A stretch of 64,000 nucleotides of DNA from Rickettsiales bacterium. Its GTDB lineage: Bacteria > Pseudomonadota > Alphaproteobacteria > Rickettsiales > UBA1997. The stretch spans positions 46,136 to 110,135 of the forward strand of contig JAGAUJ010000003.1 of NCBI GenBank assembly GCA_017620845.1. The letters are read 5' to 3'. The translations under genes were made by a program, and so were the position numbers. The notes beneath the pieces were generated by a model. It did not search any database. It had not been told where the DNA came from and saw only the letters and a program-made list of their open reading frames with translations. Of the stretch, positions 17,056 to 43,321 are shown piece after piece (the first letter of the stretch is position 1; each line of letters starts with the position of its first letter).

Positions 17056-18201
17056 TTATTTAGTTTCATCAAAAATAAAATTAATATTTTGCCAACTTTG
17101 ATATTTTGTTGATGGTAAATTTCTTATTGGATTACAATAAGCCAAAGCAACCCTTGCATTATTTATTGCAACATCATAATCCTCTGGAGAAAACTTATTT
17201 TCATCATCTATAACTTTTATTTTTATTTCTTTTGAATCTATTATTCCATCCATAAACAATTTTATTGTAACAGATGTTTTAACCATACTTTTTTTACCTG
17301 TTTGTATAAGCGCATTTTTATAACAAGAAACCAATTGATTTTGAACCACCATCCTTTCTCTGGCAGATAAACCAAAACCACTATTTTCTCTTTTTATTAT
17401 TTCTTTTATTTGTTTTAGGTCTTTTTGTGTAAAAATTTTATCAACATCTATATTTAACAACAAATTTTTATTGTGTTCGTTATTGTTCTTTGTAATAATT
17501 TGTTCATTACCACTCATAACAACTTTTTTATTTAGATTATTTTTATTATTAGTCTTATTATTGTTTGTAATTTTTGATAAAATTTTATCCAAATCCTGAA
17601 TGTTTTGTTCATTTTTATTAACATTGTTTATTGTGTTATTATTTGTTTTATTTATATTGTTTTTATTTATATCCGCTACAATATTTTCTAATCTATCTTT
17701 TTCTGCGTTTGTAGATATATTTTTATTAGTATTATTTTGTTTTACAACTTCAACCATTTTCATTTTTTCTTCTTGTTTTTTAACATATCTTTTATAGTCT
17801 GTTGGCCCCAAATATAACACATATTCATTATTTTTGTTATTATAATTATTATTTGCATTAATTATTTTTTTTACAGCATTAATATCTAAATTGGTATTTA
17901 TATTATTAATATCTTCTTGTAGTGGTGGTAAAACTTTATTTTCATTTTTTATTGATTTAGATATTTTATATAAATCTATTTTATCTTGTAAAGACAGCTC
18001 TGGAAATAAATCTGTTTCTGTTGTTTTAATTTCATTATTAGCAAATAAAGATTTATCTATATTAATTATATTTATATGTGTTATTTCTTTATTTATTACA
18101 CTATTTATTGTATCATTGAAAAATAATATCAATAAAAATAAAACATGTAAACACAAAGAATATAACAAATTTCTAATCATTTCTTTTTTTGCTTTTTTCA
18201 T
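17056..18201 (-). CDS. tolA: TolA-like protein
   Basis: 381 aa with an N-terminal TM anchor, a long Asn/Lys-rich linker and a C-terminal TolA/TonB-C-like domain. It sits between tolR and tolB. Confidence 0.6.
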   Translation of the reverse strand: MKKAKKEMIRNLLYSLCLHVLFLLILFFNDTINSVINKEITHINIINIDKSLFANNEIKTTETDLFPELSLQDKIDLYKISKSIKNENKVLPPLQEDINNINTNLDINAVKKIINANNNYNNKNNEYVLYLGPTDYKRYVKKQEEKMKMVEVVKQNNTNKNISTNAEKDRLENIVADINKNNINKTNNNTINNVNKNEQNIQDLDKILSKITNNNKTNNKNNLNKKVVMSGNEQIITKNNNEHNKNLLLNIDVDKIFTQKDLKQIKEIIKRENSGFGLSARERMVVQNQLVSCYKNALIQTGKKSMVKTSVTIKLFMDGIIDSKEIKIKVIDDENKFSPEDYDVAINNARVALAYCNPIRNLPSTKYQSWQNINFIFDETK

Positions 18202-32930: not shown

Positions 32931-33824
32931 ATGCTAACAATAATAGCGGGGCCTTGCTCTGTTAATAAAAATAATATTGAAGAGATAGAAGAAATTTTAA
33001 ATATAGAAATTAATGGAAATAAAGTAATTTCTGGTATTAGATGTGTTGGTTTAAAATCAAGAACAATTTATACTAATAATAGTATAGATATGGGAATTGA
33101 TTTAGAAGTATTTAAATATAATCAACAAATATTAATAAGTGGCAAGTCTTATAATGAATTTGAAATAATGCCATCAATTGAGTTGGCAAAACAATTACAA
33201 GATAAATATAATTGTATCATAGCAACAGAAATTATAGAACCGGCAATTCAAATGCCACTTTTTGATAAATATTTAACTGGTTCGTTTATTCCTTGGAATC
33301 CGGCAGTAAATGCTTTGGGTTGGAATATACAACATATATCAAAATATTGTGAAAAGCGTGATAATTGGTTATTGGGTATAAAAAATCCTAAAAATTTAGG
33401 AATTTCGGTTGAAGATGTGGAAATAAATAATAAAATTGCCCCAATGGAAAAAGTTTGGTCTGGACTTGCAAGTTATTCACAATTGCCGAATGAAAGAAAA
33501 ATATTGATTCATAGGGGTGTTGATTCGGAAATGAAAAGTAATTTTAGAAGTGAATTAGTTCATAAAACGGCAATGAGAGTAAAAAATAGTGTAAGTGGTG
33601 CAAAATTATTGTTTGATCCAAGTCATTCTTTTGGTCCAAAAATGAGAGATAAAATAGTTGATGAGACGGTTGAAATAATGAAAATGAAAGATTTGTGTGG
33701 TAATTTTTTGTATGATGGAATATTGATAGAAGTTGGGACGTCTACTACTGATGCAGGACAACATATAGGTGTAAAGGAGTTAAGGGAATTGGTAAATAAA
33801 TTGAGTGAATTTAGAGAGTTTTAG
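32931..33824 (+). CDS. Divergent type I-beta DAHP synthase-like aldolase (DAHPS/KDO8PS family)
   Basis: 297 aa with IAGPCSV, GLKSRT, ATEIIEP, FDPSHSFG and ILIEV...TDAGQ, which align to family motifs including the Cys/His/Glu/Asp metal ligands. The GARN motif is not recognisable. It heads the shikimate block. Confidence 0.6.
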   Translation: MLTIIAGPCSVNKNNIEEIEEILNIEINGNKVISGIRCVGLKSRTIYTNNSIDMGIDLEVFKYNQQILISGKSYNEFEIMPSIELAKQLQDKYNCIIATEIIEPAIQMPLFDKYLTGSFIPWNPAVNALGWNIQHISKYCEKRDNWLLGIKNPKNLGISVEDVEINNKIAPMEKVWSGLASYSQLPNERKILIHRGVDSEMKSNFRSELVHKTAMRVKNSVSGAKLLFDPSHSFGPKMRDKIVDETVEIMKMKDLCGNFLYDGILIEVGTSTTDAGQHIGVKELRELVNKLSEFREF

Positions 33825-34055
33825 TATTAATAAAAATTGTAATAAATTTAGTAATTTTGTTTATGTTGTGAATACATTATAGCATCTAACCTTGTTTTTT
33901 AGTTTAATGTTATTTTTATTCTAATTTATAAAATAAAGTAAACTTATATTAAAAGCGAAGTTGTGGTTTATTAATATTAATTTTTTAAAAAAACATTTGA
34001 AATAAATAAAAATATATTATTAAATTTTCTATTAAAATAATAATATAAACAAAAT

Positions 34056-35066
34056 ATGTTAAATAATATAATTATAAAACAAAATTTAATTAATAATATC
34101 AATAATTTTATTGATTTATCAAAATTTTCAAAAGTTGCAGTTTTAACAGACGAAAATTTAATAAATTGCGGTTGGTTAGACAAATTGCAAATAAACAGCA
34201 TTATAAAAATCAAATCTGGCGAAATTAACAAAAATTTAGAAACAGTTTCACACATTTGGCAACAAATGAGTGAATTACAAATGGATAGAAAATCACTTTT
34301 AATTAATTTAGGTGGTGGTGTAGTATGTGATTTGGGCGGATTTTGCGCTTCTACTTATATGAGAGGTATAAAATTTATACAAATACCAACAACACTTTTA
34401 AGTCAAGTTGATGCTTCTGTTGGTGGAAAAACTGGTTTTGATTTTAATGGAGTAAAAAATTTAATTGGAACATTTACTGAGCCTGAAATGGTTTTAATAG
34501 ATTCTAACACTTTAACAACTTTGCCAAAAAGAGAGTATGTTTCTGGTTTAGCAGAAGTTATTAAATATGGTATTATTTATGATGTAGAATTTTTTGAATA
34601 TCTTAAAAATGACAATATAGATAATGATTATATTATAAAAAAATCTTGTGAAATTAAAGAAAAAGTTGTTTTAGAAGATTTTAAAGAAGGTGGTTTAAGA
34701 AAAATATTAAATTTCGGTCATACAATAGGGCACTCTATTGAAAGTTTATCGTTGGAAACAAAAAATCTATTATTACACGGAGAGGCTGTTGCTATTGGTA
34801 TGATTGCAGAAAGTTACATAGCAAAAGAAATTGGAAATTTGACTAATGATGAGTATGAATTAATAAAAAATATTATAGAACAATATGGTTTGCCAAGTTT
34901 TTATAATGGAGATTTAGAAGAAATATTTTTGATGTTATTTAAAGATAAGAAAAATACAAGTGGTAAAATAAAATGGGTTTTACCAAATGGAATTGGAAAA
35001 TGTGTATATGATGTAGAAGTTGATAATGATATTGTAAAAATGGCAATAAGGAGTATATTAAAATGA
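34056..35066 (+). CDS. aroB: 3-dehydroquinate synthase
   Basis: 336 aa with GGGVVCDLGGFCASTYMRGIKFIQIPTTLLSQVDASVGGKTG and metal-binding His motifs (NFGHTIGH, HGEAVAIG). Confidence 0.93.
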   Translation: MLNNIIIKQNLINNINNFIDLSKFSKVAVLTDENLINCGWLDKLQINSIIKIKSGEINKNLETVSHIWQQMSELQMDRKSLLINLGGGVVCDLGGFCASTYMRGIKFIQIPTTLLSQVDASVGGKTGFDFNGVKNLIGTFTEPEMVLIDSNTLTTLPKREYVSGLAEVIKYGIIYDVEFFEYLKNDNIDNDYIIKKSCEIKEKVVLEDFKEGGLRKILNFGHTIGHSIESLSLETKNLLLHGEAVAIGMIAESYIAKEIGNLTNDEYELIKNIIEQYGLPSFYNGDLEEIFLMLFKDKKNTSGKIKWVLPNGIGKCVYDVEVDNDIVKMAIRSILK

Positions 35067-35341
35067 ATTTAGAAGAATTGAGAATTGAAATTGATAAATG
35101 TAATAATGAAATAATAGGGGCAATTAAAAAAAGGTTTTATGTTACAAGAGAAATTGGTAAAATAAAAAAAGATAGTAATTTATCATCTTATGATAAAAGT
35201 AGAGAGGATAAAGTTATAAATAATGTTAGATTATTAGCACAAAATAGTAATTTAAATGAAGATATGATTGAAGATATTTTTAGAATTATTATGAAACAAG
35301 TTATTATAGAGCATGAGGAATTAAAAAATGCTAATAAATAA
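35063..35341 (+). CDS. Chorismate mutase (AroQ class)
   Basis: 92-aa all-helical ORF. LEELRIEIDKCNNEIIGAIKKRFYVTREIGKIKK fits the AroQ N-terminal helix. It overlaps aroB by 4 nt and aroA by 14 nt. Confidence 0.75.
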   Translation: MNLEELRIEIDKCNNEIIGAIKKRFYVTREIGKIKKDSNLSSYDKSREDKVINNVRLLAQNSNLNEDMIEDIFRIIMKQVIIEHEELKNANK

Positions 35342-36596
35342 AATAGATAACTTAAATAATGCAAAAATTGAAATTTTAGGCTCTAAAAGTTATACAAATA
35401 GGGCCTTAATTATTGCAAGTCTTACAGAAGGTAAAACAATTTTAAATAATCCACTTTATAGTGATGATACAAAGTATATGATTGAATCATTGGAAAAATT
35501 AGGTGTAAAATTTGAAAAAAGTGATAAAAAATTAGTTGTTTATGGTAATGGTGGTAAGTTTCAAGTAAATGAAAATATTGAATTATTTTGTGGATTAGCA
35601 GGAACAACAAGCAGATTTTTAACTGGATTATTAGCGTTAATAAAAGATGATATAATAATAACTGGTGAGGGTAAGATTTTAGAAAGACCAATTGGTGATT
35701 TAGTTGATGGACTGCAACAGATTGGTGCAAATATTAAGTATTTGGGTAAAAAAGGTTCACTTCCTTTAAAGGGAAATGGAAAAAATATAAGTGGCAATGA
35801 AATATCAATAAATGGTAGTGTTTCTAGTCAATATTTTACTGCACTTATGATGGTTGCGCCTTTATTGAAGGATGGATTAAAAATTAATGTTATAAGAGAA
35901 CAAGTTTCTAAATCTTATATAGATATAACTTGTGATATAATGAAATCTTTTGGTGTAGAAGTTATTAATAATAATTATAAAGAATATGTTATTAAACCAG
36001 TAAAATATAAGGCAATAGAATATAATATTGAGGGAGATTGGTCGTCAGCATCTTATTTTTGTTGTTTGGGTGCTTTAATTAATGGTGGAATAGAAATAAG
36101 TAATTTAAATAATAATTCAGTGCAAGGAGATAAACAATTTGCTAAATTAATGGAAAAGGTTGGGGCGGTAGTTGAATATAAAAATAATTCAGTTTTTATA
36201 AAAAAAGATAAAATAAGGCCCATTACTGTAAATATGGAAACAATGCCAGATACTGCTATGTCTTTGGCTGTTTTGTTATCTTTTGCAAATGGTAAAAGTA
36301 GAATAAATGGGTTGTCCACTTTAAAAAATAAAGAAAGCAATAGATTGTTAGCAATGAAAAATGAACTTGCTAAATTGTCAATAAAAACAGAAATTGGAGA
36401 TGATTATATTGTAATTTATGGTGGAAATTATCATAGAGTTATTGGGGAAATAGAAACTTATAACGATCATAGAATTGCAATGTCTTTTGCTATTGCTGGG
36501 GCGGTTATTGGTGGAGTTGAAATAAAAAATCCAGAGGTTGTAAGTAAATCTTTTCCAAATTTTTGGGAATATTTTAATAATTTAAGTAAAAAATAA
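35328..36596 (+). CDS. aroA: 3-phosphoshikimate 1-carboxyvinyltransferase (EPSP synthase)
   Basis: 422 aa with GSKSYTNRALIIASL, LFCGLAGTTSRFL, KESNRLLAM and NDHRIAMSFAIAG. Confidence 0.93.
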   Translation: MLINKIDNLNNAKIEILGSKSYTNRALIIASLTEGKTILNNPLYSDDTKYMIESLEKLGVKFEKSDKKLVVYGNGGKFQVNENIELFCGLAGTTSRFLTGLLALIKDDIIITGEGKILERPIGDLVDGLQQIGANIKYLGKKGSLPLKGNGKNISGNEISINGSVSSQYFTALMMVAPLLKDGLKINVIREQVSKSYIDITCDIMKSFGVEVINNNYKEYVIKPVKYKAIEYNIEGDWSSASYFCCLGALINGGIEISNLNNNSVQGDKQFAKLMEKVGAVVEYKNNSVFIKKDKIRPITVNMETMPDTAMSLAVLLSFANGKSRINGLSTLKNKESNRLLAMKNELAKLSIKTEIGDDYIVIYGGNYHRVIGEIETYNDHRIAMSFAIAGAVIGGVEIKNPEVVSKSFPNFWEYFNNLSKK

Positions 36597-36597
36597 T

Positions 36598-37191
36598 ATG
36601 GAAAAATATAAGAGAATTTTGTTGTTGGGTTTTAGATGTGTTGGTAAAACAACAATATCTAAAAAATTATCAAATATAATGAATATACCACTAATAGATA
36701 TAGATGAAGAGATAGAAAAAAAACAAGGTAAAACAATTACTGAAATTACAAACAATGGTGAGAATTGGGTTAGATTTAGAGAATTAGAGTTAAAAAAATT
36801 AGAGGAAGTTTTAAAAATTGATAATATTATTATTTCTGCTGGTGGTGGAGTTGGTGTAAATGATGTAAAATATGATGACAATTTTACTTATGGATATTTA
36901 CAAAGAGATTTAATAAAAAAATCAACAGATACTTTAAAAGTTTTGTTATTTGCAAATGAAAGAGTTTTAAGAGATAGATTGTATTTAAGTAAAATAAATG
37001 AAAATAATAGACCAGATTTATATAATAAAACAAATAGTATAACAGAATATATTGAAAGTAATATACAAACTATGAAAAAAAGAGAAAAATTTTATAAAGA
37101 AATGGCAGATTTGGTGTTTGATGCAAGTGATAAAGATGATTATAAAAATACTATAAATTTAATAAAAATGATTAAAGATTATGAAATTTAA
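36598..37191 (+). CDS. aroK: Shikimate kinase
   Basis: 197 aa with P-loop LLGFRCVGKTTISKKL and the ISAGGG motif. The C-terminus is extended. Confidence 0.8.
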   Translation: MEKYKRILLLGFRCVGKTTISKKLSNIMNIPLIDIDEEIEKKQGKTITEITNNGENWVRFRELELKKLEEVLKIDNIIISAGGGVGVNDVKYDDNFTYGYLQRDLIKKSTDTLKVLLFANERVLRDRLYLSKINENNRPDLYNKTNSITEYIESNIQTMKKREKFYKEMADLVFDASDKDDYKNTINLIKMIKDYEI

Positions 37192-38044
37192 AAACGAATT
37201 AGAAAAAATTGAAAATACATATTTTGGAAAAAATAAATGTATAATAATTGGCAATCCAGTAGAGCATTCTTTATCACCAGCAATGCATAATATTGCTTAC
37301 AAAAATTGCAATATTGACGATAAGTTTATTTTTGATAAAATTACAGTAAAAGAAGAAGAATTGGAGGAGTTTATTTTTGATTTAAAAGATATTAATAAAA
37401 AAACTAATTCTTTTGTTGGGTTGACTTGCACTATGCCACATAAACAAAATATAATTAAATATTTAGATGAGATAAAAAATGAAGCAAAAATAATAGGTGC
37501 TGTAAATAGTGTTTTAATTAAAGATAATAAGTTTATAGGTTATAATACAGATTGGTATGGTGTAGAGCGACCATTTATGGAAAGATGTATTAATTTAACA
37601 AATAAAAAAGTCGCCATTATTGGTGCTGGTGGCGCATCAAGATCGGCAATTTATACTTTTAAGAAAAATAATAGTGTAGTAAATATTTTTAATAGAACAA
37701 AAGAAAAGGCGGATTTGTTAGCAAAAGAATTTAACTGTAATTCTTATAATTTACAAGATATGGATGTTTTAGAAAGTAGTGATATTATTATAAATACAAC
37801 AAATGTTGGTATGGGCGAATTGGAAAATATATCGCCAATAAATACTGATGTTTTAAATAAAAATCATATAGTTTTTGAATGTATTTATAAACCAAAAGAA
37901 ACTGAATTAATTAAAAAAGCAAAAAATGTTGGTGCTACAATTATTTATGGTTGGGAAATGTTATTGTATCAAGGAGTTAAGCAGTTTGAAATATATACTA
38001 GTATAAAACCAAATATTGATATTATGAGAGGTGTGTTGTTATAA
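37181..38044 (+). CDS. aroE: Shikimate 5-dehydrogenase
   Basis: 287 aa with GNPVEHSLSPAMHN, TMPHK, NTDWYG and the NADP site IIGAGGASRSAIY. Confidence 0.88.
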   Translation: MKFKNELEKIENTYFGKNKCIIIGNPVEHSLSPAMHNIAYKNCNIDDKFIFDKITVKEEELEEFIFDLKDINKKTNSFVGLTCTMPHKQNIIKYLDEIKNEAKIIGAVNSVLIKDNKFIGYNTDWYGVERPFMERCINLTNKKVAIIGAGGASRSAIYTFKKNNSVVNIFNRTKEKADLLAKEFNCNSYNLQDMDVLESSDIIINTTNVGMGELENISPINTDVLNKNHIVFECIYKPKETELIKKAKNVGATIIYGWEMLLYQGVKQFEIYTSIKPNIDIMRGVLL

Positions 38045-38106
38045 AGATGTGTATTAAAATGTCTGTTATAGTATTGTTAATTTTGTTAAAATTATAGGTG
38101 TATATT

Positions 38107-38775
38107 ATGATAAAAATTTGTAGTGTAGTTATTGGGGAAAGTTTAGAAGAATTTTTAGATAATTTATATAAAGTTCAAGAAGTTTCTAATTTTGTTGAGT
38201 TAAGAGTTGATTATATTAAAGATTTATCAATAGAGTATTTAGATATTATTAAAAAACAAACAATAAAGGAAAATATTTTTACTTGTAGATCTATTAATGA
38301 GGGCGGAAGATTTGCGGGCAGTAAGGAAGAATTAAAAAGTATAATTTATAGAGCAAATGAATTACAATTTAATCATATTGATATTGAAATATCAATGTTA
38401 GAAAATATTAATTTTGATAATAAAAATTGTAAAATTATAGGCTCTTATCATAATTTTAATAATACACCAAATTATGATGAATTATTAAATATTTATAAAA
38501 ATATAAAACAGTATGATTTTGTAGATATTGTTAAAATCGCAACAAATGTTATAAATGATAATGATAATATTGAATTAGTTAAATTACTAATAAATAAAGA
38601 TAAAGATATTATTGTTTTAGGTATGGGAGAAAAAGGGAAAATAACAAGGATTATATCGCCTTTATTGGGTGGTTATTTAACTTTTGCATCTGTTGATAAT
38701 AATATTTCTGCTTCGGGGCAGATTTCTTTAAATGATTTAATAAAAATATATGGGGATAAATATGACTGGAAATAG
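38107..38775 (+). CDS. aroD: 3-dehydroquinate dehydratase, type I
   Basis: About 222 aa with a TIM-barrel type I DHQase layout (ELRVDY..., SYHNF, and a conserved Lys region VKIAT). The start is taken at ATG 38107 (GTG 38098 is possible). Confidence 0.8.
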   Translation: MIKICSVVIGESLEEFLDNLYKVQEVSNFVELRVDYIKDLSIEYLDIIKKQTIKENIFTCRSINEGGRFAGSKEELKSIIYRANELQFNHIDIEISMLENINFDNKNCKIIGSYHNFNNTPNYDELLNIYKNIKQYDFVDIVKIATNVINDNDNIELVKLLINKDKDIIVLGMGEKGKITRIISPLLGGYLTFASVDNNISASGQISLNDLIKIYGDKYDWK

Positions 38776-39847
38776 TTTTGGTAATTTATTTAAAATAACT
38801 ACATTTGGCGAATCGCACGGGGTCGCTATTGGTTGCGTTATAGATGGATGTCCTGCTAATATTGAAATTACAGAAGAGGATATACAAAAAGAATTAGATA
38901 AAAGAAAACCTGGGCAAAGTTCTATAACAACACAAAGAAAAGAAGAGGATAGGGTGCAAATTTTGTCTGGTGTTTTTGAGGAAAAAACTACTGGAACACC
39001 TATTATGTTGCTTATAATGAATAAGGACCATAAGTCGGCGGATTATTCTAATATTAAAGATATATTTAGACCATCTCACGCAGATTATACATATTTTAAA
39101 AAATATGGCATTAGAGATTATAGAGGTGGAGGTAGAGCGTCTGCAAGAGAAACTGCTTGTAGGGTTGCTGGTGGAGTAATAGCAAAAAAGTTTTTACAAA
39201 GTAAAGGTATTGAAGTTTTGTCTTTTGTGGAGCAAATAGGCAACATAAGAATGGATTATAATTCATTAGATGATATTTCTGTTGATAAAATTGAAAGTAA
39301 TATTGTTAGGTGTCCTGATATGGAAAAAGCAAAATTAATGATAGAATTGATAGAAAATACTAAAAATAATGGCGATTCTATTGGTGGAATTATTAAGTGT
39401 ATTATAAAAAATTGTCCTGCTGGACTTGGCGAACCTGTTTTTGATAAATTATCAGCACAATTAGCAAAAGCAATGTTAAGTATAAATGCTTGTAAGGGTT
39501 TTGAATATGGGGATGGTTTTGATTTTGTGAATAAAAGCGGTTCTAATTGTAATGATGAGTTTGTAAGTAAAAATGGTAAAATTTCTACAAAAACAAATCA
39601 TTCTGGCGGTATTCAGGGCGGAATATCTAATGGTGAAGAAATTAATTTTAGGGTTGTATTTAAACCTACTGCTACAATATTTAAGGAGCAAGATACGGTA
39701 AATATAAATGGAGAAAATGTTAAGTTTCAACCTTCTGGTAGACATGATCCTTGTGTTGTTCCGCGCGCTGTTCCTGTTGTTGAGGCTATGACTTGGTTGA
39801 CTTTGATGGATTTTTGGTTAATAAATAATGGTTTGTTGATAGATTAA
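38762..39847 (+). CDS. aroC: Chorismate synthase
   Basis: MTGNSFGNLFKITTFGESHG..., RPGQS, RPSHAD, GGGRASARET and GRHDPCV. ATG 38762 matches the family N-terminus (the ORF track starts at 38750). Confidence 0.95.
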   Translation: MTGNSFGNLFKITTFGESHGVAIGCVIDGCPANIEITEEDIQKELDKRKPGQSSITTQRKEEDRVQILSGVFEEKTTGTPIMLLIMNKDHKSADYSNIKDIFRPSHADYTYFKKYGIRDYRGGGRASARETACRVAGGVIAKKFLQSKGIEVLSFVEQIGNIRMDYNSLDDISVDKIESNIVRCPDMEKAKLMIELIENTKNNGDSIGGIIKCIIKNCPAGLGEPVFDKLSAQLAKAMLSINACKGFEYGDGFDFVNKSGSNCNDEFVSKNGKISTKTNHSGGIQGGISNGEEINFRVVFKPTATIFKEQDTVNINGENVKFQPSGRHDPCVVPRAVPVVEAMTWLTLMDFWLINNGLLID

Positions 39848-39904: not shown

Positions 39905-40034
39905 TGCTTGTTTTATTTATATGTATGTATGAGTATATTATTTAATTAAATTACTTATATTAATAAATTATTATAACGTTAAAAATATTATATTTTCAAG
40001 AAAATTACACTAAAAAATCATTTCTATTTTTCTA

Positions 40035-40063
40035 TTGACATTTTAAAAATACTTATTTATACT
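40035..40063 (+). promoter_or_regulatory. Sigma70-type promoter of tRNA-Gly
   Basis: TTGACA (40035-40040), 17 nt, TATACT (40058-40063). The -10 box ends 14 nt before the tRNA. Confidence 0.55.
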
Positions 40064-40077
40064 TACTATGGTTATAA

Positions 40078-40153
40078 GCGAGTGTAGCTCAGTTGGTAGA
40101 GCGCAACCTTGCCAAGGTTGGGGTCGCGCGTTCGAGTCGCGTCACTCGCACCA
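40078..40153 (+). tRNA. tRNA-Gly (GCC)
   Basis: 76 nt with acceptor GCGAGTG/CACTCGC, anticodon stem CAACC/GGTTG, loop TTGCCAA, T-loop TTCGAGT and an encoded CCA. Confidence 0.93.
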
Positions 40154-40462
40154 GTCAGTCTTATTTTTATTTATGTCAAGTTTTAGTTTGTATTAAGTCT
40201 TTGTGTTGTTTGTGTATGGATTTGTTATCTGTTTTGTATTGTAAATTTTAGTTGTTTGTATATTTGTTGTTTTATATCTTTATAAATAATTGTAAATAAA
40301 CATTGTGTAATTGTTCAACTCTATTTTAAATACAAAAATAAAAGGGTTACAAAATTTTCTTGCATTATTAAAAATAAACTCTACAATCTTAAGTATTAGA
40401 TAAAAAGTAATTTTTATCATAATATTTTTTAACTATTTTAATAAACAAAAAAATTAAATATT

Positions 40463-40724
40463 ATGGCACATACATTAACAACAAAAAAAAAATATTAGAA
40501 TTACAGCAAGAAGAACTGCTATAAATAAATCAAGAAAAAGCAGAATTAGAACTTTTTTAAGAAAAGTTGAAGATGCTGTATTGGCTAAAAATAAAGAATT
40601 GGCAAAAACAGCCTTAGTTGAATTTGAATCAGAAATAATGAAAGGCGTTTCAAAAGGTGTTTATAAAAAGAACACTGCTGCAAGGAAAATAAGAAGAATG
40701 GCAAAACAAGTTAATAGCATATAA
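40463..40724 (+). pseudogene. rpsT: 30S ribosomal protein S20 gene interrupted by a frameshift in an A10 tract (possibly still expressed)
   Basis: ATG 40463 reads MAHTLTTKKKY then TAG (40496-40498). The +1 frame from 40491 reads NIRITARRTAINKSRKSRIRTFLRKV...AARKIRRMAKQVNSI and ends with TAA at 40722-40724, which is clearly S20. The two parts join across the A10 run at 40483-40492. Removing one A gives an 86-aa S20. This gene is absent from the ORF track. Confidence 0.85.
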
Positions 40725-40756
40725 TTTACATGTTATAAACAATAATAAAACTAGTA

Positions 40757-41629
40757 ATGACAATATTAAAAGAATATAACTTTATAAAACTAACAAAAGT
40801 AACTTGGTTATTTTCATTGGTTTTATTTATAATTTCTATTACTAGTATTAGTGTAAACAAGTTTAATTTTGGAATTGATTTTACTGGTGGAATTATATTT
40901 GATATAAATATAACAGATAAATCAAAACAAGAACAAATCAAAGATAAGTTATCTTTAATCTATAAAAATAACATTTTTCAAACTTATAACGATGGTGTTA
41001 TAATAAAAATATCACAGCAAGATATAACAAGCAAAAGTAAAGATATTGAAAATATAACACAAACAATAAAATTAATTGATAGTGAAATAGTGTTTAACAA
41101 AGTTGATTTTGTTGGGGCGCAAGTTGGTGACATTTTGGTAAAAAATGGTATAAAATCGTTACTACTATCTTTTATTGGAATAATGTTATATATATGGTTG
41201 AGATTTAAGTTACATTTTGGAATAAGTGCAATAACTGCTTTAATACATGATATTCTTATATTATTTGGTTTTATATCAATTTGTAAAATAAAATTTGATT
41301 TAACGACAATTGCCGCAATACTCACTGTTGTTGGTTATTCTGTAAATGATACGGTTGTATTGTTTGATAGAATAAGAGAAAACTTAAAAATATACAAAAA
41401 GGAAAAAGACATTAAAGAAATTGTTAATATAAGTATCAATAATAATTTAAAAAGAACTTTATATACAAGCATTTCAACCTTATTTGCAATATTTCCATTG
41501 GTATTTTCTACTGTTGATAGTTTAAAAGGTTTTAGTGCGGTTGTAATGTTTGGTATTATTATTGGCACTTATTCGTCTATATTTATAGCATCATTATTAT
41601 TAACATATAAACACAAATTATTGGAGTAA
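40757..41629 (+). CDS. secF: Protein translocase subunit SecF
   Basis: 290 aa with FGIDFTGG and VGYSVNDTVVLFDRIREN and six TM helices. No secD is adjacent. Confidence 0.9.
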   Translation: MTILKEYNFIKLTKVTWLFSLVLFIISITSISVNKFNFGIDFTGGIIFDINITDKSKQEQIKDKLSLIYKNNIFQTYNDGVIIKISQQDITSKSKDIENITQTIKLIDSEIVFNKVDFVGAQVGDILVKNGIKSLLLSFIGIMLYIWLRFKLHFGISAITALIHDILILFGFISICKIKFDLTTIAAILTVVGYSVNDTVVLFDRIRENLKIYKKEKDIKEIVNISINNNLKRTLYTSISTLFAIFPLVFSTVDSLKGFSAVVMFGIIIGTYSSIFIASLLLTYKHKLLE

Positions 41630-41632
41630 AAA

Positions 41633-43036
41633 ATGAAAAGAACTAAAATAGTAGCTACAATAGGTCCAAAATCAGAACATCCAGAAATTTTAAAACAATT
41701 ATCAGAAGTGGGTGTTAATGTTTTTAGATTAAATTTTTCACACGGTTCTCATGAGGAGCATGGTAAAAAAATAGATGCAATAAGATCTTTAAAATTACCA
41801 GGTGCAGTAATGTTGGATACAAAAGGTCCAGAAATTAGAACCGGTGAAGTAAGAGATAAACTTTTTGTAAAAATTGGTGATAAGTTTACAATGACAACAG
41901 AAAAAGGTGTTTATGAAGATACTGGTAAAGTTAGTGTTAATTATAAAGATTTTTTAAAAGATGTAGATGTTAATGATGTTATTTGTTTTGATAGTGGCGT
42001 AATGTTTGCAAAAGCATTAAAGAAAACAAAAACAGATATAGAGTTTGAAGTGGTTAGTGGACAAACTAATATAACAACAAAAAGACACATAAATTTATTT
42101 GGTAAACCAGTTTCTTTGCCAACAGTTACAGAACAAGATTGGAAAGATATAGATTTTGGTATAGAAAAAAAAGTTGATATGATTGCTTTGTCATTTGTTA
42201 GAAGTGCAAAAGATGTTAAAGAAGTAAAAGATTATTGTATTGCAAAAGGACATAAAAATGTTCATATAATTTCTAAAATTGAAAATTTTGAAGCGACACA
42301 AAATTTAGAAGAAATAGTTGCTGAAAGCGATGGAATTATGGTTGCAAGAGGTGATTTAGCTTGTGAAATTCCATTTTCAAAAGTTCCAGCAATGCAAAAG
42401 AAAATAATTGCTTTGTGTGCTTTGTATAAAAAACCAGTTATAGTAGCAACTCAAATGTTATTATCAATGACTGATAATATACAACCAACAAGAGCAGAAG
42501 TTTCTGATGTTGCGAATGCAGTATTTGAACATACTGATGCAGTTATGACATCTGATGAAACAACAAAAGGTGTTGATCCAGTTAATGTTATAAAAGTGAT
42601 GGCAAAAATTGCAGAAGATACCGAAGATGAAATTTATAGTTGTGATTGTGATGGCGATTGTGATTGTGGTTGTCATGAAGGTAAAGAGTGCACTTGTGGT
42701 TGCCAAAGTAATGAAGGAATATTCTCTATTTTACCAGATTATACAGAAGATGTTGATGCAATAGTTGTATTAAGTGATAAAGTAGAATATACAAATAGTG
42801 TATCAAGTGCAAGATATGATTTACCAATATTTTCATTTACCACAAATGAAACAATAGCAAATAATTTACATTTAGTATGGAATACAAAACCATTCGTTAT
42901 AAAAGAAAATAATAACTTGGAAGATAATATAAAAACAATAGAAAAAACAATTAAAAAAGAATATAAAGGTATTAAACAATATATATTTGTATTTGAACTT
43001 AATGGTTCTTTAACAATACAAGTAAGAGATATTTAA
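41633..43036 (+). CDS. pyk: Pyruvate kinase (with a Cys-rich insertion)
   Basis: 467 aa with MKRTKIVATIGP, FRLNFSHG, DTKGPEIRTG, MVARGDL and TQML.SM. It carries an unusual insert, CDCDGDCDCGCHEGKECTCGC, at about 42641-42700. Confidence 0.92.
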   Translation: MKRTKIVATIGPKSEHPEILKQLSEVGVNVFRLNFSHGSHEEHGKKIDAIRSLKLPGAVMLDTKGPEIRTGEVRDKLFVKIGDKFTMTTEKGVYEDTGKVSVNYKDFLKDVDVNDVICFDSGVMFAKALKKTKTDIEFEVVSGQTNITTKRHINLFGKPVSLPTVTEQDWKDIDFGIEKKVDMIALSFVRSAKDVKEVKDYCIAKGHKNVHIISKIENFEATQNLEEIVAESDGIMVARGDLACEIPFSKVPAMQKKIIALCALYKKPVIVATQMLLSMTDNIQPTRAEVSDVANAVFEHTDAVMTSDETTKGVDPVNVIKVMAKIAEDTEDEIYSCDCDGDCDCGCHEGKECTCGCQSNEGIFSILPDYTEDVDAIVVLSDKVEYTNSVSSARYDLPIFSFTTNETIANNLHLVWNTKPFVIKENNNLEDNIKTIEKTIKKEYKGIKQYIFVFELNGSLTIQVRDI

Positions 43037-43068: not shown

Positions 43069-43321
43069 AATTTAGTGAATATTTTAGTATATACGGTGTG
43101 CTTTGTGTAAATTGTTGTTGAGTCAGTAAGAGTCGACGGTCGTTGTTTGTGTTGTTTTTTGTGGTAAGTATTGTTGAATTTATAAAGATTTATTGAAAAT
43201 ATTTTAAATAACTTATAGACAAATAACATTAAGCACATCTTTATTAAGGTATTATTGGGCAAGTAACTTGAATTATATTATTGATTTATTGTAAATTATT
43301 AAATGATTATTATTAAATAAA

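Follow-up and report, generated by a model that had tools for sequence, protein, structure and literature searches.

A ten-base poly(A) tract interrupts rpsT in one Rickettsiales metagenome assembly: a probable consensus error in an ordinary S20 gene

INTRODUCTION

Frameshifted poly(A) genes have been described in the insect endosymbionts Buchnera aphidicola and Blochmannia. As Tamas et al. (2008) are summarized in two later papers (PMC5009743, PMC3017870), the genomic frameshift in these organisms was confirmed and is conserved, and mixed transcripts were measured. Corrected transcripts make up 12-50% for such genes (Atkins et al. 2016, PMC5009743), and the hallmark of the maintained cases is a frameshift that is conserved across populations and species with no decay of the gene (Williams and Wernegreen 2010, PMC3017870). 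Genome-wide work in E. coli and Buchnera found that slippage on A/T runs yields mainly single-base insertions and that transcript deletions seldom occur in runs (Traverse and Ochman 2017, PMC5574713).

Other described systems leave different signatures. Programmed +1 frameshifting, as in prfB, is recognized by conservation of the shift site and of the interrupted frame among orthologues, together with stimulatory elements, and phase-variable (contingency) loci by recurrent tract polymorphism with both states common. Homopolymer consensus errors in short-read metagenome assemblies and metagenome-assembled genomes (MAGs) appear as a single +1 change that is private to one assembly and contradicted by independent assemblies of identical sequence.

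Here we analyse the rpsT gene within a stretch of 64,000 nt (hereafter the window; G+C content 25.6%) assigned to a Rickettsiales bacterium. A sequence-only reading of this DNA had proposed that rpsT, split by a poly(A) tract, may be rescued by transcriptional slippage. The locus resembles the Buchnera and Blochmannia genes in its AT-rich genome and in an indel of one base within a run of at least nine A, the housekeeping gene being otherwise intact. It differs from them in that the frameshift is missing from every other assembly of the strain or species and from all relatives and is known here from DNA alone, and in that the organism comes from ruminant gut metagenomes, the same strain having been assembled from a ruminant colon metagenome.

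RESULTS

The rpsT reading frame is broken at an A10 tract

The features of the locus are as follows.

40078..40153, + strand: tRNA-Gly(GCC), the upstream neighbour of rpsT, with a 309-nt spacer between the two
40463..40724, + strand: rpsT (30S ribosomal protein bS20) as found, 262 nt, one base in excess
40463..40498, + strand: 0-frame stub MAHTLTTKKKY, 11 codons, ending at TAG 40496-40498; a by-product of the additional A
40483..40492, + strand: A10 homopolymer at codons T7-K8-K9-N10; A9 (ACA AAA AAA AAT) in all other assemblies of the species
40491..40724, + strand: S20 body in the +1 frame, N10-I86 plus the TAA stop, the same as in the intact gene elsewhere
40494..40496, + strand: ATT codon (Ile11), apparently the start in the NCBI annotation of MBO4956303.1, judged by the identity of P0007 with the translation from this codon
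40757..41629, + strand: secF, the downstream neighbour, 32 nt past the rpsT stop

Re-reading of the sequence bore out the earlier description of the break. From ATG 40463-40465 the 0 frame runs ATG GCA CAT ACA TTA ACA ACA AAA AAA AAA TAT TAG, giving MAHTLTTKKKY before the stop, and the homopolymer is exactly ten A long. The +1 frame is shut by TAA 40476-40478 and thereafter stays open until TAA 40722-40724; no ATG, GTG or TTG occurs in this frame upstream of TTG 40581, so that it has no canonical start of its own before that point. With A9 the gene is 261 nt long and encodes a continuous product of 86 aa plus stop, MAHTLTTKKNIRITARR...KQVNSI. An A12 version would also be in frame, its 87-aa product carrying one additional Lys, and an A11 version would not restore the frame. 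Two A-runs of at least ten were observed in the window against 2.6 expected from base composition; the length of A10 is thus statistically ordinary in itself, and what is notable is the position of the tract.

The repaired product is a full-length S20

As the sequence-only reading had held, the locus is rpsT and removal of one A yields a full-length S20 whose profile matches extend from end to end. The A9 product matched Pfam PF01649 (Ribosomal_S20p) with an E-value of 3.9e-22, residues 3-84 aligning to positions 2-83 of the 83-position profile (79.1 bits, cut-off 29.5), and NCBIfam TIGR00029 (S20) with an E-value of 1.2e-22 over positions 1-84 of 84 (80.3 bits, cut-off 33). The conserved N-terminal motif of the bS20 family, A-x-x-x-x-x-K-K-N/R-x-R, is present in the repaired product, whose N-terminus MAHTLTTKKNIR is common to dozens of Rickettsiales-like MAG proteins. 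Among relatives this N-terminus hardly varies, and in 19 of their sequences K8, K9 and N10 show no variation. The locus departs from the family in one respect, namely that its frame is broken at codons 7-10 by the additional A, and this in the window alone.

Comparison of the repaired gene with relatives gave dN/dS values of 0.13-0.35, which show purifying selection. The additional A aside, the gene is the same as intact copies, and the earlier view that it is not decaying therefore stands.

The tract is A9 in other assemblies of the species

A search covering 5.8 billion proteins returned a database protein, P0001, that agrees with the A9 product at 100% identity from end to end and has 25 contigs on record. 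The sole shortened S20 variant from the species, P0007, was on one contig in the same protein database, an NCBI MAG contig of 121,923 nt.

The sequence-only reading had named A9 in the genome as an outcome that would refute it, and the comparison with other assemblies comes as near to that outcome as assembled sequence allows: rpsT was intact and the tract A9 in 15/15 distinct contigs of the species, from 15 assemblies, although 12 of these had been picked by exact match to the intact product and are A9 by construction, the other three having been reached via a SecF look-up. The contigs comprise MEGAHIT (k141), SPAdes (NODE), Logan and third-party XIEF21 scaffolds, are 98.0% to 100% identical to the window, and share the gene order aroE-aroD-aroC, rpsT, secF, pyk. 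In all of them rpsT is an uninterrupted ORF, whereas in the window it breaks at A10. SecF provided a handle on rpsT loci that is independent of the rpsT gene call. This look-up gave ten contigs, of which the three displayed carry an 86-aa S20 call and seven were collapsed as having the same neighbours; it and the database-wide contig counts are the only parts of the comparison unbiased towards A9.

Further searches for an A10 version were less informative. The 47-aa TTG ORF (40581-40724) that a gene caller might produce from an A10 contig had no database record, which is weak negative evidence. A pattern allowing any tract length, GGCACATACATTAACAAC N{7,14} TATTAGAATTACAGCAAG, had no match in the genome_contigs and metagenome_contigs collections, from both of which the species is absent. 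A profile scan of JGI metagenomes returned distant S20 genes only (at most 57% identity), which are uninformative for the tract.

Related species keep rpsT in a single frame

Relatives were found by profile scan, with one genome taken per GTDB species; their NCBI label is 'Rickettsiales bacterium'. In 10/10 of these Rickettsiales-like MAG species (61-79% identity) rpsT lies in a single frame. The identical in-frame ACA AAA AAA AAT (A9) recurs in five, and in the other five the run is interrupted by AAG or ACT with the peptide unchanged. Across these species and the same-species contigs, the frameshift is conserved nowhere.

A parallel case was found in one related species, where a contig (L121) and the GTDB representative (L039) match along 1234 nt but for a single A. 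The difference lies in another rpsT tract, TAC AAA AAA AAC, which is A9 in L121 (415-423) and A8 in L039 (415-422); the A9 form leads to P0056, a singleton truncated S20 of 73 aa ending in ...VYKKKHSY. One-A discrepancies between otherwise identical assemblies thus recur sporadically in the poly(A) tracts of the clade. Such a pattern is expected of technical noise or of transient slippage alleles, and is not a recoding signal.

The additional A is the sole indel across 64 kb

A near-identical contig from an independent assembly, ENA ERZ28018929 k141_285456 (167 kb), was tiled over positions 1-64000 of the window via four overlapping loci (L068, L021, L013, L025). The two sequences differ at three places in total: the additional A in rpsT, position 17535 (G in the window, T in the contig) and position 17554 (C in the window, A in the contig). 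The additional A is the sole indel, and among homopolymers within genes the one that holds it is the longest. The remaining long runs are equal in the two sequences (four A9, one A11, and A8 and T8 runs). Among them is the longest homopolymer of the window, the A11 at 58501-58511; it is intergenic, flanked by a hydrolase gene and trbC, and has equal length in two independent contigs (L025, L026). A systematic homopolymer error of the long-read kind in this assembly was considered and rejected, as the other A/T runs of at least 8 agree with the independent contig.

The two substitutions lie 19 nt apart and are both T>G-type once strand is considered. Both are non-synonymous in an ORF on the minus strand (17056-18201) encoding a hypothetical protein of 381 aa, and both are absent from four other contigs, diverged strains included. 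T>G-type changes are a typical Illumina error class; the two substitutions may be consensus errors, and would then suggest a thinly covered consensus. Given known Illumina error spectra, each of the three differences private to the window is of a kind that short-read consensus errors can produce.

The probable public annotation starts S20 at an ATT codon

The shortened variant P0007 (MBO4956303.1, 'MAG: 30S ribosomal protein S20 [Rickettsiales bacterium]') is 76 aa long and begins MRITARR.... It equals the translation of 40494-40724 with its first residue (ATT) read as M, and it looks like the annotation pipeline's workaround for the A10 sequence; an exact look-up of the 76-aa protein returned no recorded contig. 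ATT 40494 was rejected as the true start, since all close relatives conserve ATG 40463 and the peptide MAHTLTTKKN, and K8, K9 and N10 do not vary. The earlier expectation that the gene would escape annotation pipelines or be labelled a pseudogene was thus right only in part: in MBO4956303.1, the one NCBI record that fits this sequence and presumably its source, S20 is annotated, from ATT 40494, and the annotated product is N-terminally truncated.

DISCUSSION

The tenth A is most probably technical

Taken together, the comparisons favour the view that the tenth A arose as a consensus error in one assembly alone, a reading to which we assign a probability of roughly 65%. The organism's rpsT would then be ordinary, intact and single-frame, codons 7-10 (ACA AAA AAA AAT) forming the in-frame A9, and the tenth A would have entered through a miscount of homopolymer length during short-read metagenome assembly or contig merging. 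The frameshift is private to one assembly, the other assemblies and the related species being all in frame; that its cause is technical, as opposed to a real allele in the sampled population, we infer as most likely. Like the homopolymer consensus errors known from short-read metagenome assemblies, it consists of one +1 change, lies in the region's longest coding homopolymer, is private to one assembly and contradicted by independent assemblies of identical sequence, and has a sister case in the related MAG pair L121 and L039. It differs from such errors in that the other long runs of the window, the intergenic A11 included, are concordant between assemblies. Consensus errors are, moreover, uncommon in high-coverage Illumina data, which counts against the error reading.

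The published methods of one project that recovered this strain are compatible with a technical origin. Xie et al. 2021 (PMC8199421) used NovaSeq PCR-free libraries with MEGAHIT and IDBA-UD assemblies, and the supplementary assembly table has Minimus2 rows too; a pipeline of MEGAHIT, IDBA-UD and Minimus2 could introduce consensus slips. The same project (PMC8199421) yielded A9 assemblies of exactly this strain. One of these, an A9 contig from SRR12529194 (L007), has zero mismatches to the window; the run corresponds to sample 'Colon-4' in the supplement of that paper (PMC8199421), and the organism therefore occurs in the ruminant hindgut.

A young slippage allele is the strongest alternative

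A possible but clearly less probable alternative is that A10 is real, a very recent replication-slippage mutation in the sampled clone that produces a transient and mildly to strongly deleterious frameshift in rpsT. Runs of A9 or A10 are known hot spots of replication slippage, and the two further private differences from the identical-strain contig may mark the window as a distinct clone. E. coli and Salmonella survive the loss of S20, though at a cost. Such a clone might still make some S20: RNA-polymerase slippage would convert A10 to A9 or A12 in the mRNA, the ribosome could slide by +1 along the AAA codons, or ATT 40494 could serve as a weak start. As read from the sequence, +1 re-pairing of tRNA-Lys from AAA 40484-86 to 40485-87 would yield exactly the wild-type peptide. 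For frameshifted poly(A) genes of Buchnera and Blochmannia, corrected fractions of 12-50% are reported (PMC5009743, PMC3017870).

Against this stands the absence of the A10 allele from 15/15 other assemblies, some of them identical over 54-64 kb. The gene has no secondary mutations, and the allele, if real, would therefore be extremely young. Rescue of A10 at the RNA level requires the loss of one base or the gain of two, changes that slippage favours less (PMC5574713), and a product started at ATT would be without K8, K9 and N10, the residues invariant in 19 relatives. The narrower proposition that A10 is both real and predominant, with enough S20 made via polymerase slippage or +1 ribosome sliding for the clone to survive, we regard as improbable. 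Were it true, a core ribosomal-protein gene would have been caught in transit through a frameshift at a hypermutable poly(A) tract, and the phenomenon would extend past insect endosymbionts to a gut-associated, AT-rich alphaproteobacterium. A real A10 would be a minor new example of something already described.

Rescue by maintained slippage of the Buchnera and Blochmannia type, as the sequence-only reading had suggested, is not supported. The single indel in an A/T run of at least nine within an otherwise intact gene is there, but the frameshift does not recur in independent populations or species, the feature by which the maintained cases were identified (PMC3017870): it was found in 0/15 contigs of the species and in 0/10 related species.

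Phase variation and maintained recoding find little support

It is very unlikely that the A9/A10 run is a phase-variable (contingency) tract by which S20 is switched on and off within the population. Phase-variable loci classically carry a homopolymer in the opening 30 nt of the gene, and the second rpsT tract does differ (A8/A9) in a related species. The off state, however, was seen in 1/16 assemblies only, with 15 on (A9) and 1 off (A10) and hence no recurrent polymorphism in which both states are common, and genes for core ribosomal proteins are not of a kind known for phase variation. In half of the related species, moreover, AAG or ACT breaks the run and leaves the protein unchanged; the run therefore follows AT-rich codon usage and is not preserved for its own sake.

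Least probable of all, and scarcely tenable, is a maintained, selected recoding site, whether a conserved slippage-corrected poly(A) frameshift or a programmed +1 shift regulating S20: the gene is otherwise intact and under purifying selection, the tract is close to the 5' end and the 0-frame stop lies one codon past it, yet conservation of the frameshift, the defining property of such a site, was tested and failed (0/15 contigs, 0/10 species). S20 is autoregulated in E. coli. The locus shares with programmed +1 frameshifting (e.g. prfB) and with poly(A) sliding a +1 shift on iterated AAA codons just before a 0-frame stop, but differs from prfB in that its shifted form is not conserved, every orthologue being in a single frame, and in having neither a Shine-Dalgarno-like element nor a stimulatory structure. 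Inspection of the sequence upstream of the tract found no Shine-Dalgarno-like stimulator, and folding of the RNA from 40440 to 40580 gave no convincing frameshift stimulator (z-score -1.9).

The practical value of the case is thus an annotation caveat. A one-base homopolymer discrepancy in a MAG turns an intact S20 gene into an apparent pseudogene or a truncated product with an ATT start, and the discrepancy is resolved once independent assemblies of that strain are compared. The finding is an ordinary one whether A10 is an error or a young allele, and for lack of conservation A10 tells us nothing new about recoding.

Other features of the region

A promoter and terminator scan of 40000-40900 detected no terminator and gave counts as expected from shuffled sequence; a weak candidate promoter picked out by eye, TTGCAT-16-TACAAT at 40360-40387, lies under the scan threshold. 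Within the spacer between tRNA-Gly and rpsT, the + strand of 40154-40310 is strongly G/T-rich, with recurrent TTTGT and TTGT motifs. Another G/T-rich spacer, 3' of pyk, has a TG dinucleotide difference among strains at 43153-43154.

Several differences among strains and assemblies were seen elsewhere. A 69-bp segment between aroE and aroD (38036-38104) is missing in two strains of 98% identity (L001, L004), whose aroE and aroD overlap. On contig ERZ28436049 NODE_3191 (L015 4439-4780), aroD is called at 113 aa as against 222, which may be another assembly-specific disruption. One variant strain carries, adjoining uvrA, an ORF with two eukaryote-like Myb DNA-binding domains (L022 466-909), which is absent at the corresponding position in the window's strain.

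Upstream of rpsT, positions 32931-39847 hold a contiguous cluster of DAHP synthase-like, aroB, chorismate mutase, aroA, aroK, aroE, aroD and aroC genes; a full shikimate pathway is notable in a genome of 25.6% G+C labelled Rickettsiales from ruminant gut samples. Downstream, the pyruvate kinase gene (41633-43036) encodes a Cys-rich insert, CDCDGDCDCGCHEGKECTCGC, at residues 337-357 (window 42641-42715), which is unusual for this enzyme and could bind metal.
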